From the NCBI RefSeq assembly GCF_028641065.1, contig NC_073408.1:12462001-12526000 (forward strand): 64,000 nucleotides of DNA. Direction: 5' to 3'. Positions 5,723 through 30,639 of the stretch are shown piece by piece. Under the pieces are notes generated by a model. That model saw nothing but the letters and a program-made list of their open reading frames with translations, was not told the DNA's origin and ran no database searches. The position numbers and the translations under genes are program-made. This DNA comes from Leucoraja erinacea (taxonomy: Eukaryota). The stretch's first letter is position 1; each line of letters starts with the position of its first letter.

Positions 5723-5956
5723 AACTGGCCTTTCTTCTTAAGGGTAATTGGGGATAAACAATAAATTCTGTCCTTACAAGAGACAGCTGAATTCCTGATA
5801 AGTGACAAATAACAAAACTACCAGAACACTTCAACCTTTTAGGTGCCAGTGAGCTGATGCGGGCATGTTGGTAGCCCTGGCAACATCTTGGATGATGATA
5901 GAACAATGTTCGAACTTCTCATGGCTTCCTGTGTTAAAGATTTTATCAAGCCCCAC

Positions 5957-6098
5957 TTATTCTTCTTGCGTATGTATGGCTTGCACAGCCAAGTTGTAGG
6001 ACAACTTGTTCTAATTGATCTTATTTGATTGTGCACGCCAGGTTGATTGCATTGGTTGAAACAGGGCGGACCACGTGAAGGTTGCAATCTCCCACCCC
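5957..6098 (-). mobile_element. 142-bp non-autonomous retroposon headed by an HDV-like ribozyme, with (AAG)n-like tail
   Basis: 12-bp TSD atcaagccccac at 5945-5956 and 6099-6110. The minus strand starts GGGGTGG and ends gcaagaagaataa. Confidence 0.8.
6045..6098 (-). ncRNA. Minimal HDV/CPEB3-like self-cleaving ribozyme (predicted)
   Basis: P1 GGGGUGG/CCGCCCU with G1.U wobble; J1/2 GA; P2 GAUUGCA/UGCAAUC; P3 ACC/GGU; L3 UUCACGU; P1.1 C-G plus U.U; P4 reduced to UUCAA; J4/2 CCAA with putative catalytic C at 6055. Confidence 0.75.
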
Positions 6099-7004
6099 AT
6101 CAAGCCCCACATTTGTCCCCCTCAAAGAGCTAACTCTAATTCAACAGTTTAGTTGGTATGTTTTCTCACCCTGGAAGGCATGCATGAAAATTCAAGCCTT
6201 TGTGTTTTAATTAACACTAAGCCTTTCATTTCCTGGATTTCCTGTCATTAATGATTCAATTGTGAGACAATTTATAGGACACTTCTCCAAAGAGTAGCAA
6301 GCAATTCAGATCCTAATATTTTAAAATACCGTTACTTTGCACGTAAAAAAAACCCACTTGGAATTGTCTTATTTGTTACCTTTAATTGCGCTGTCTGAAT
6401 GGGATTGCGCAGACTGTCAACACATCCCTCTCCCTCTGTTAATGCATTAACCTTGCTTACTGTCACAATGCCTCTAGAATTGATGCTATTTATCCAATTA
6501 CATTACTCATTCACAGATTACTGTCTGCTAAAAAACAAAACGGAAGACTGTTTATTTCCTTATTAAATACCCACCATCTCTAATCACAAAGAGTAGACAG
6601 ATTAGTCAGCTGTCCAAGGTCTCAAAATCAATTTCTGACTTCCAAAACTACTTAACATTCAACAATTCGTCAAACTATAAAAATACAATTTTAACATTTT
6701 AAAGTTTATTTTAGGAAATGTCAAAATAAAATGTTTTTTTCCCAGCCACATGCTTATTTTGAAACAGAAACAGAAAATGCTGGAAGCAGTTTGCAGTTGA
6801 AGCAGCATCAGTTTGGAGAGAAATAGAATCAAGATTTTGCAACAGAATTGGAACAGTAGGAGAATGTGTTTTAATGACATGAACACGACAGGGTGCAAAC
6901 CAAAGCTGCCAAGTTATCAATTACAGGCGATCCCAGGTTACATAAGAGTTCCACTCCATACAACTGCCCATGTCCATTTCTCCATAAGTCAGGTTCATTT
7001 TAAT

Positions 7005-28790: not shown

Positions 28791-29292
28791 TGTGTGGACA
28801 GTACGTACAAACAAGGGGTGCCCCTCTGCTTCCCTTTGTACTGCCCTCCGGGAGATATAATGGGCTTCCATTCCATCAGTCTGCACATGAAATAGATCAT
28901 CATTGTCGACTTTCAGCTTTCACATAACTTCAATGCGGCTCAATATACAGCTCAAGAAAAAGCATCACAACATTAGAAACTTGTAGGCTCAATACAGAGG
29001 TAGATATTTTCCAAATCAAGAAATACTAATGTGTCCTGAGGCAATGATTTTATACTAGCTCCGTTTTCCATTTAATTTCCAACACCCAGTCACAAATAAA
29101 AACCATTGTAATCTCGGGTACTACTTGCATCCTCCAATCAAGCATCCCAATCCCAGGCTTCTGTTTAATCTCTGCATTTATCAAAACCACTGCCTTAAAA
29201 ATTGACTAGTTTCTCCAGAACATTTCGAATTGTTTATTGCATATCTCAGGTACCAAGCAAATATTTTGATTGACCATTATGTTAATTCTTAC

Positions 29293-29455
29293 CTGATCTG
29301 AACTGGACTTTGATTGCCCTGCCATACAGCTGGATTCCATTCAGCAAATCCTTCCCGTAATGGACAGACTCCTCGTGCTTAAAATTCACGAACGCGAACA
29401 GTTTTGATTTCCCGTCTTTATCCCGAGGAATTTTTACCGCCAATAGCGGGCCAGC
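29293..29455 (-). CDS. RBM7: RBM7 coding exon 2 (RRM, RNP1)
   Basis: accag| acceptor, |gtaaga donor, 163 nt. AGPLLAVKIPRDKDGKSKLFAFVNFKHEESVHYGKDLLNGIQLYGRAIKVQFRS(G). Confidence 0.95.
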
Positions 29456-30079
29456 CTGGTAAACAGAAAATGAATCTGTCAATTGTACATTGTGAAACTG
29501 CGATTTATGGGATGCGAGGGCTGCCTCAGAGACCTGGGTTTATGTGTCGTGCGGTTTTGTAGGTAGATTGGCCTCTGTAAAATTGCCCCGTATGTGGAGG
29601 AAGTGATGAGAAGTGGGATAACAGAACTTGTTGTGCTGATTGGAGTGGACTCGATGGTGGGTCGAATGATCCGTTTCCATTTGTATCACTAAACAAGGGT
29701 TAAAGTAGAGTTTGAAATAAAGTGGTTAAAGCCTGTACAGCGATTTAATCTGCAGGAGCGAGAATAAAATCCCTCCTGGGAGCCTTTCGGAGTGTAAATA
29801 ACCCAAATCCCGCCAGCAGGGCAACGACTCTGCGAGACGGCGTCTGCTTCTGATTAGATGGAAACTTTGCGGGAGTTTCGTTTAAACTGAGCGCCGGGCA
29901 AGTTCGCCGCAGCACGAGGGGGCGAAATATATCTGAAATCAAACAATTCGAGGGGGAGAAAAGGGACGAAGTCCACCGGAAAATATTACAATCAGCCCGT
30001 CCCAGGGTATCGGCACTTCGGGAGCACAAGGGACGTGGCCGGAGGAGGCAGGCCGGCGCCTGAGCAACAGGCCTCGATA

Positions 30080-30172
30080 GAAACAAAAAGCTGGAGTAAC
30101 TCAGCGGGACAAGCAGTATCTCTGGAGAGAAGGAATGGGTGACGTTTCGGGTGGTGACCCTTCTTCAGACAG
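30080..30172 (-). mobile_element. Penelope-derived repeat with intact hammerhead core in RBM7 intron 1 (sense)
   Basis: The minus strand reads CUGAAGA-A-GGGU-CACC-ACCC-GAAAC-GUC at 30168-30141. Confidence 0.7.
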
Positions 30173-30241
30173 AGTCGGGGGAGAGGGGGTCGATAGAGGG
30201 GAGAGAAGGCCTCGATAGGCCGGCCGCCCGCCCTCCCTTAC

Positions 30242-30334
30242 CTGGAGGAACAGCTCGAACAGGAGCTCCTCCGTCACTTTAATGTCCAGGTTCCCGATAA
30301 ACAACGTCTTATTCGCATCGTCCGATACCCCCAT
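30242..30334 (-). CDS. RBM7: RBM7 coding exon 1, RNA-binding protein 7 (NEXT complex); full CDS 93+163+91+67+417 = 831 nt, 276 aa
   Basis: Kozak gccaccATGg; MGVSDDANKTLFIGNLDIKVTEELLFELFLQ (RNP2); donor cag|gtaagg. Adjacency to REXO2 favours RBM7 over its paralog RBM11. Confidence 0.95.
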
Positions 30335-30639
30335 GGTGGCTGCAGTCCCCTGCCCGCCCGGCACCCGAGGGTAAAACCAGCCCGTAAATCCGATTAAGGC
30401 GCCTTTTTAAAAGCCGCGTCTTCCCCTTCCTCAGGCCCCGCTTCCGCCCCGCTGGTTTCGTCACCCGGGCACACTTCCGCCCCGCAAGCCTCCATCTCAG
30501 ACAACAAACTAAAGTCATTATAGGAAGGGAGCACAGTTTTTATATCTTCTGTGGTATATAAAGTAATGCTCTATGACCTACTTCACAACTTTTTTGATAG
30601 TGCATTTCCTAGTATTTAGAAACTGATATGGAATAGTAG

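Follow-up and report, generated by a model that had tools for sequence, protein, structure and literature searches.

A short retroposon descended from a Vingi-type LINE and headed by a putative P4-less HDV-like ribozyme

The window analysed here (the whole stretch of DNA, 64,000 nucleotides) contains on its minus strand a short insert whose first base coincides with the first base (G1) of a predicted HDV-like ribozyme fold. The locus raises the questions of what this insert is, which element mobilised it, and whether the fold could form its 5' end by self-cleavage. A sequence-only reading had proposed a promoterless, ribozyme-headed SINE, probably mobilised by an RTE-clade LINE.

Direct-repeat analysis bore out an insert of 142 nt (window 5957-6098, minus-strand orientation) flanked by 12-nt direct repeats (TSD) that are 100% identical, as first described. 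The features are as follows:

6099-6110, no strand: TSD on the element 5' side, 12 bp, 100% repeat match
5945-5956, no strand: TSD on the element 3' side, 12 bp, identical to 6099-6110
6045-6098, minus strand: HDV-like nested double-pseudoknot fold, P4-less, 54 nt, predicted from descriptor and pairing; derives from the parent LINE 5' end
6098, minus strand: G1, the element's first base
6092-6098 with 6063-6069, minus strand: P1
6083-6089 with 6045-6051, minus strand: P2
6080-6082 with 6070-6072, minus strand: P3
6073-6079, minus strand: L3; P1.1 pairs 6077 with 6062
6056-6060, minus strand: loop in the place of P4; J4/2 at 6052-6055
6055, minus strand: C44, first base of J4/2, at the position of the catalytic cytosine (HDV C75, CPEB3 C57)
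6022-6044, minus strand: remainder of the LINE 5'-UTR piece, element nt 55-77, from similarity to L304/L303 over nt 1-77
6030-6040, minus strand: outer-stem 5' arm, within the LINE 5'-UTR piece
6000-6021, minus strand: middle segment unlike either LINE end, a rearranged junction, from comparison with the LINE ends
6001-6008, minus strand: inner-hairpin 5' arm, within the middle segment
5968-5999, minus strand: LINE 3'-end piece (the ORF's last codons, stop and a 3' UTR of about 20 nt), from the identical terminus after the ORF in LINE copies
5977-5987, minus strand: outer-stem 3' arm, within the LINE 3'-end piece
5957-5967, minus strand: (AAG)n microsatellite tail, from element and family comparison

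The 3' hairpin of the earlier description was recovered as two inverted repeats (folding z = -3.09 in the window copy and -4.0 in a consensus-like copy), and the AAG-repeat tail was present in the window copy, in other copies and in the parent LINE. The middle segment (6000-6021) may have arisen by local duplication. A search with the Pol III A/B box consensus found no ordered A-box and B-box pair in the element, in agreement with the absence of visible boxes reported before. No tRNA-, 5S- or 7SL-derived head was found by Rfam scan and box search; the head of the element is the 5' end of a LINE, described below.

Read on the minus strand, nt 1-54 are GGGGUGG GA GAUUGCA ACC UUCACGU GGU CCGCCCU GU UUCAA CCAA UGCAAUC. 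These bases can form P1 of 7 bp (including the wobbles G1.U36 and U5.G32), J1/2 of 2 nt, P2 of 7 Watson-Crick pairs, P3 of 3 bp, L3 (UUCACGU) and P1.1 (a C22-G37 pair, with U21 facing U38); 5 nt replace P4, and J4/2 is CCAA in the window copy, with C44 at window 6055. The element head has the nested double pseudoknot with its helices in the proper order (P1 7 bp, P2, P3 3 bp, P1.1), and the window copy carries the core bases: G1.U36, the L3 bases U20 and G25, and a J4/2 that opens with C and closes with A. A purpose-built topology descriptor gave one match in the 64-kb window (both strands) and none in 100 dinucleotide shuffles; with a looser L3, the same descriptor matched in 1/100 dinucleotide shuffles. 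The claim of a full HDV double-pseudoknot pattern in the first 54 nt therefore stands, with two amendments: the 7-bp P1 with its G1.U was correct, and the second wobble (U5.G32) had gone unmentioned; J4/2 CCAA was correct for the window copy and is a minority form in the family (consensus CGAA; parent LINE CUAA).

An Rfam scan of the element gave no ribozyme match at E<=10, and neither the element nor any of five LINE heads, a pair of distant heads and an RTE-like family's head reached an Rfam gathering threshold; no Rfam model suits a P4-less head of this sequence. The head was not singled out by minimum free energy (MFE) folding (z = +0.98), which is the expected outcome with a pseudoknot. 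By analogy with published ribozymes, C44 would be the catalytic cytosine (PMC4836649, PMC10879173). A U.U as second P1.1 pair is compatible with fast cleavage (PMC13635239) and HDV ribozymes without P4 are active (PMC10879173). With the 5-nt replacement of P4, the pairs G37-C44 and U38-A43 could close a UUCG hairpin that would hide C44.

For family size, the genome was searched by similarity with the 142-mer (1570 candidates; 40 were scored, each 92-100% identical). Exact matches to the first 38 nt numbered 955, and those to a 35-mer close to the 3' end 1616. Extrapolation from one contig, C1, where the tail word lay at 9 of 53 head places, gave a genome-wide estimate of about 9,500 copies, which is a minimum, since young copies tend to carry both words. 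The family is thus a large one of about 10^4 copies. In the tail-anchored set, 22 distinct copies aligned over >110 nt (from 30 fetched) diverged from the consensus by a mean of 7.0% (median 6.0%).

The 5' ends were assessed on 30 tail-anchored places, the first among the 1616, with the head disregarded in the choice (L077 and L078 among them are one duplicated insertion). Element sequence began at nt 1-2 in 23/30 and by nt 8 in 26/30. A TSD of at least 8 was found in 20/30 (16 of these 20 being 11-13 bp) vs 1/138 mismatched flank pairs. In all four sequencing runs that were mapped, loose read ends clustered at places 1499-1501, where G1 is 1501. The proposal of a retroposon that begins at G1 was borne out by both the copies and the read ends. 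Each of 14 DNA-type sequencing runs, under six organism labels, contained at least half of the sampled element words (one may be the source sample); among the runs listed, no RNA run did so. One insertion (L018) had identical flanks joined in organisms D and F, so amplification is at least partly older than the D/F split.

The parent was sought with the element tail plus non-consensus bases upstream (80 matches, 30 fetched). In 3/30 (L218, L223, L236), the end of an ORF runs directly into the element's last ~35 nt, and this LINE 3' region has 645 candidates in the genome. When the element was compared by blastn with the 30 LINE 3'-end loci, the tail was listed in 22/30 loci (23 listed matches), and it can be read at nearly all of the locus ends. 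Upstream walking led to L303 and L304, which both begin with element nt 1-77 (80% and 87% identity), and L303 carries both element ends, head and tail. The parent LINE is about 3.0 kb long, with a single-ORF architecture and an (AAG)n tail. Reading frames of L304 matched Exo_endo_phos and RVT_1 in a domain scan and were colinear with P0001, a 1019-aa APE+RT protein, to which the parent protein is 40-84% identical over residues 29-1011; an RNase H family was absent from P0001 and from the six L304 pieces scanned. Stops and frameshifts interrupt the translated LINE copies (L250, L254, L304). A consensus built from 19 LINE 5' regions had the same fold, with A32 (U5-A32), J4/2 CUAA and a P1 that is fully Watson-Crick below G1.U.

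The C-terminal Cys/His motif of the parent protein presumably corresponds to that of Vingi. Vingi elements are compact, with one ORF and an APE endonuclease, and lack RNase H (PMC13708176). The parent is accordingly labelled Vingi-type by its architecture and this C-terminal motif; among the 120 homologues listed there was no named Vingi sequence.

Two forms of the derivative were recognised. In a minor subfamily (L215, L216, L222), LINE nt 1-97 are fused to the tail at a 2-nt microhomology, a plain deletion product of the LINE. The window copy falls in the major subfamily, whose middle is rearranged and whose outer stem, formed between the 5'-UTR and 3'-UTR pieces, has been lengthened by two changes from about 8 pairs to 11. 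The element holds the extreme 5' end of the LINE and its extreme 3' end with the tail, lacks the ORF and has its own amplification with TSDs: it is a bipartite internal-deletion derivative of a Vingi-type LINE, in which the first ~80-100 nt were joined to the last ~35 nt plus (AAG)n and then copied about 10^4 times. The label SINE was therefore loose, for an internally deleted LINE without a small-RNA head; that the element is non-autonomous holds.

Within the family, no two-sided (compensatory) changes were found. Frequent source variants fell at sites that are unpaired or tolerate change, nt 8 (J1/2), 42 (loop) and 45 (G, T, A or C as the J4/2 second base); nt 32 was also variable (G or A, each of which pairs with U5). 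C44 was T in 4/59 copies vs 6-8/60 for other CpG cytosines, so no selection on C44 after insertion was seen and it decayed like the other CpG cytosines. The whole fold was kept in 3/22 tail-anchored copies, 19/30 best matches, 21/27 head-anchored copies and 8/39 others. Decay after insertion looks neutral in these alignments, and the window copy appears simply to have retained all its pairs.

For distant relatives, an alignment of 25 homologues was used to fetch 78 metagenome loci. The strict fold lay 103-216 nt upstream of the protein match in 3 of the 21 loci that reach the protein N-terminus; it occurred 0 times on the opposite strands of those 21 loci and 0 times in 321,021 minus-strand bases. 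The distant Vingi-type elements with the fold before the ORF have 39-45% protein identity, and one locus (L329, 39%) has a perfect fold that starts 12 nt from the contig end. Under relaxed rules, the fold was found in 4 of the 18 distant loci having at least 87 upstream bases; by eye, four more had it (L336, L366, L386, L397) and one had it in part, and in 9/18 no fold was recognised by relaxed rules or by eye.

For covariation, seven heads of five families were compared, L355 and L366 being left out of the pair count. Pairs were counted segment by segment, as MAFFT could not align the P2 3' strands across differing P4 lengths. In this table 108/119 cells pair, a percentage inflated because segments were picked by pairing, the independent signal being position and background; 12 of 17 pairs were changed on both sides. 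P2 and P3 strands crossed between families paired in 5.45/10 on average, vs 9-10/10 within their own family. The G1 pair, counted apart from the 17-pair table, was G.U in 5 heads, G-C in 1 and U.U in 1, and the C44 position was C in 7/7. P4 measured 22-28 nt in all distant heads and 5 nt only in the lineage of the window element. Covariation of P1 and P2 thus exists between families and not within the family, and the compensatory changes in P1, P2 and P3 across distant Vingi-type families support a real ribozyme, as far as comparative evidence reaches. Two distant heads showed features of their own: L342:54-131 can be aligned to P1, P3 and L3 of the Rfam CPEB3 model (15.8 bits, below the 35-bit cut-off), and in L331:1-130 the ORF is preceded by a long hairpin and by GC-rich complementary segments that are nested; these do not match the HDV core pattern and by eye are possibly another fold.

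Taken as a whole, we consider it probable that the insert is a Vingi-type bipartite derivative that uses HDV-type self-cleavage at G1 and is inserted in trans by target-primed reverse transcription. In this scheme, Pol II would transcribe a source copy, either reading through into it or starting at a promoter within its head. With Mg2+, and with C44 acting as general acid, the 54-nt ribozyme would cleave 5' of G1; this would strip off host sequence, and the new 5'-OH end would sit inside P1. Acting in trans, the LINE protein would recognise the shared 3' end, and the RNA of about 135 nt would be reverse transcribed from the primed target, nearly always to its end; as the template would be copied to its end, each new copy would regain the whole ribozyme. 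The 11-bp stem between the 5'-UTR and 3'-UTR pieces may mimic end-to-end pairing in the LINE RNA.

The fixed RNA end is also visible in the parent. An inverted piece lies at most 30 nt from the start of the forward body in 12/61 LINE loci (rows mapping past reference nt 2600 were excluded on account of a different repeat in that part of the reference). Of these 12 inverted pieces, 7 stop at element nt 4-16, and in no locus does the piece extend beyond nt 1. Inversions of 5' ends are known from L1 work to arise by twin priming, and these are read as twin priming in which reverse transcription ran off a template ending near G1. They show a fixed RNA end and are silent on how that end forms.

An internal Pol II promoter with its start site at +1 would set the same end on the same Vingi-type bipartite derivative, the fold being slow or inactive, and either protective or a relic. 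It predicts an equal pile-up of 5' ends, and the 5'-end and inversion data fit both readings. The first 77 nt of L1Tc (Pr77) are a promoter and a ribozyme at once (PMC3383444), a precedent for a promoter at this place, so 'promoterless' should not be assumed for the element. The 22-28-nt P4 kept by distant families and lost in this lineage points the same way, as do poly(A) reads without a start pile-up or depletion at the junction. These came from X23, a poly(A) RNA run of a different organism, of which 6% was read and whose strandedness is not recorded; it yielded 902 element reads, in both directions. Of these, 94% continue into other sequence; no site was seen where many molecules start, and there was no loss of reads across G1 (junction-spanning depth 0.60 and 0.61 of the next bin, by direction). 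In X23 the element is a passenger in host transcripts, and the run gives cleavage in vivo no support; it is a weak test, because the majority of copies have decayed and the products of cleavage may escape recovery. Against an inactive fold, the LINE and derivative consensus keep G1.U36, U20, G25, C22-G37, C44, A46 and A47, source variants avoid the catalytic-core positions, and P4-less HDV ribozymes are active (PMC10879173). A ribozyme and a promoter can also coexist. We regard a promoter without an effective ribozyme as rather unlikely.

Mobilisation of an independent ribozyme-headed SINE by an RTE-clade LINE, as first proposed, fared worse. For the RTE search, the PF20049 profile, which we take to be linked to RTE, was followed by a walk to six full-length copies, and 20 weaker matches were checked. 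One RTE-like family was found (3.25 kb, (AAG)n tail, ~88% pairwise identity, age similar to the element's). It has an HDV-like head of its own, and cross-mobilisation through the common tail repeat is conceivable. As a parent it was rejected: neither end is shared, only the AAG repeat and a 19-nt fold core being common, whereas the Vingi-type LINE matches both ends. Its protein matched P0001 at 31% identity over one short piece, as against 40-84% for the parent. The RTE-clade attribution is not upheld, and we hold this origin to be very improbable.

The head of the RTE-like family was recorded in its own right (L153-L158, e.g. L154:2354-2500, plus strand). It has a perfect 7-bp P1 of other sequence and a long P4. 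Its P1.1 is swapped relative to the element (G22 in L3, C after P1), there is an A.A mismatch in P3 and one unpaired base is needed in P2; the strict descriptor misses this head because of the last two features.

An accidental resemblance to the fold in the first 54 bases of a repeat would agree with the missing Rfam match and the unremarkable MFE z-score, and is refuted, to a negligible residue, by 0/100 shuffles, the identity of G1 with the element boundary and the covariation at the same place in distant families.

Several published systems resemble the Vingi-type bipartite derivative. NARTc, RIME (from L1Tc/ingi) and SIDERs are likewise internally deleted derivatives of Ingi-group LINEs with an HDV-like ribozyme in the first ~77 nt and the cleavage site at +1 (PMC4035085, PMC3383444). 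Their TSD are 11-12 nt, near the 11-13 bp of most element copies, and the ribozyme was shown to be active in NARTco and several SIDERs (PMC4035085, PMC3383444). These are trypanosomatid elements, with an RNase H-bearing parent and a P4-containing ribozyme; the present element lies in an animal genome, has a parent without RNase H and a P4-less 54-nt fold, is about 135 nt long and has about 10^4 copies. Bipartite derivatives of Vingi-1_EE also consist of Vingi LINE 5' and 3' ends joined by internal deletion (Kojima 2018, PMC5786205), and SINE2-1_ACar contains Vingi-derived parts (PMC5786205). R2 SIDEs are ribozyme-headed, ORF-less LINE parasites freed from a co-transcript, a scheme similar to that proposed here, but are specific to 28S rDNA, with a ~184-nt ribozyme and an RLE-clade parent, in contrast to the dispersed element and its APE clade (PMC3414825, PMC6765202). 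Ribozyme-headed LINE deletion derivatives and bipartite Vingi derivatives are thus already known (PMC4035085, PMC6765202, PMC5786205).

The fold itself is closest to two groups of ribozymes. Minimal HDV-like and theta ribozymes also have no P4, a short J1/2 and the catalytic C first in a 4-nt J4/2; nearly 99% of the minimal HDV ribozymes are in phages, beside tRNAs, and the eukaryotes surveyed were human, mouse and protists (PMC10879173). Unlike these phage ribozymes, the minimal fold described here heads an animal retroposon. The element core equals the Rfam CPEB3 (RF00622) consensus in L3, in the GU after P1 and in the CGAA junction (family consensus). The CPEB3 ribozyme has the same G1.U36, U20/G25 numbering and P1.1 of one G-C plus U-U, but is single-copy and intronic, with P4 and other P1-P3 sequences (PMC4836649). 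From these comparisons, the resemblance to CPEB3 is best described as a likeness of core.

In the literature searched, neither a Vingi ribozyme nor the element's family is described; Repbase, Dfam and patents lay outside that search and a prior description is possible. Ruminski 2011 may cover, under the name 'Ingi', elements now called Vingi. A Vingi ribozyme was likewise unreported in the accessible sections of PMC5753468, PMC3894237 and PMC3391268. As far as this search reaches, a putative HDV fold in the Vingi clade and its P4-less version in an animal retroposon appear to be new. Knowledge of mechanism is unchanged, LINE deletion derivatives with ribozyme heads being already established.

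The question of why only RTE, Ingi, Vingi and R2 yield bipartite derivatives was left open in PMC5786205, and becomes testable if Vingi joins the LINEs with an HDV-like head. Tentatively, and with less confidence than the reading of the insert itself, a 5' HDV-like ribozyme may be general in Vingi LINEs, with an active 54-nt P4-less form here as the first not to come from phages or metagenomes, and with the ~135-nt derivative as a minimal mobilisation cassette. If so, ribozyme, end-to-end stem and tail would make up the cassette for Vingi mobilisation, and RTE, Ingi, Vingi and R2 would all have a self-cleaving head, which would answer the question of Kojima 2018. Vingi-type heads with a CPEB3-like core would then be a candidate source of vertebrate host HDV-like ribozymes. 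The family itself provides, at thousands of loci, naturally varying copies of an HDV fold that lacks P4 and comes from an animal genome. Vingi-1 proteins serve in RNA gene writing, where driver and template both carry native 5' UTRs, and the accessible part of that report mentions HDV ribozymes for R2 only (PMC13708176); a cleaving head and a minimal template of ~135 nt would bear on the design of gene-writer templates.

Some observations concern the parent LINE and neighbouring repeats. The 5' inversions are frequent in the Vingi-type LINE (12/61 loci: L249, L257, L273, L276, L277, L294, L218 and five others), and in four of the inverted loci the inverted piece spans nt ~5 to 79-108, near the deletion breakpoints of the short element. 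A candidate longer variant (L091, 469-838) was rejected, as a ~225-bp fragment of another repeat interrupts a copy. A composite repeat was seen in 11/30 fetched loci (L181-L184, L187, L197, L199, L203, L204, L207, L208): an element copy without nt ~31-58 and the tail lies between common upstream sequence and a C-rich tract, and this repeat, in which the fold is destroyed, was spread by some other element. Finally, 97 frames from window 1-32,000 were scanned, and the sole host-gene find there was an RBM7-like exon at 29,285-29,539; exons of this RBM7-like gene lie at window 29285-29539 and 30104-30406 (minus strand), about 23 kb from the element and on the same strand.
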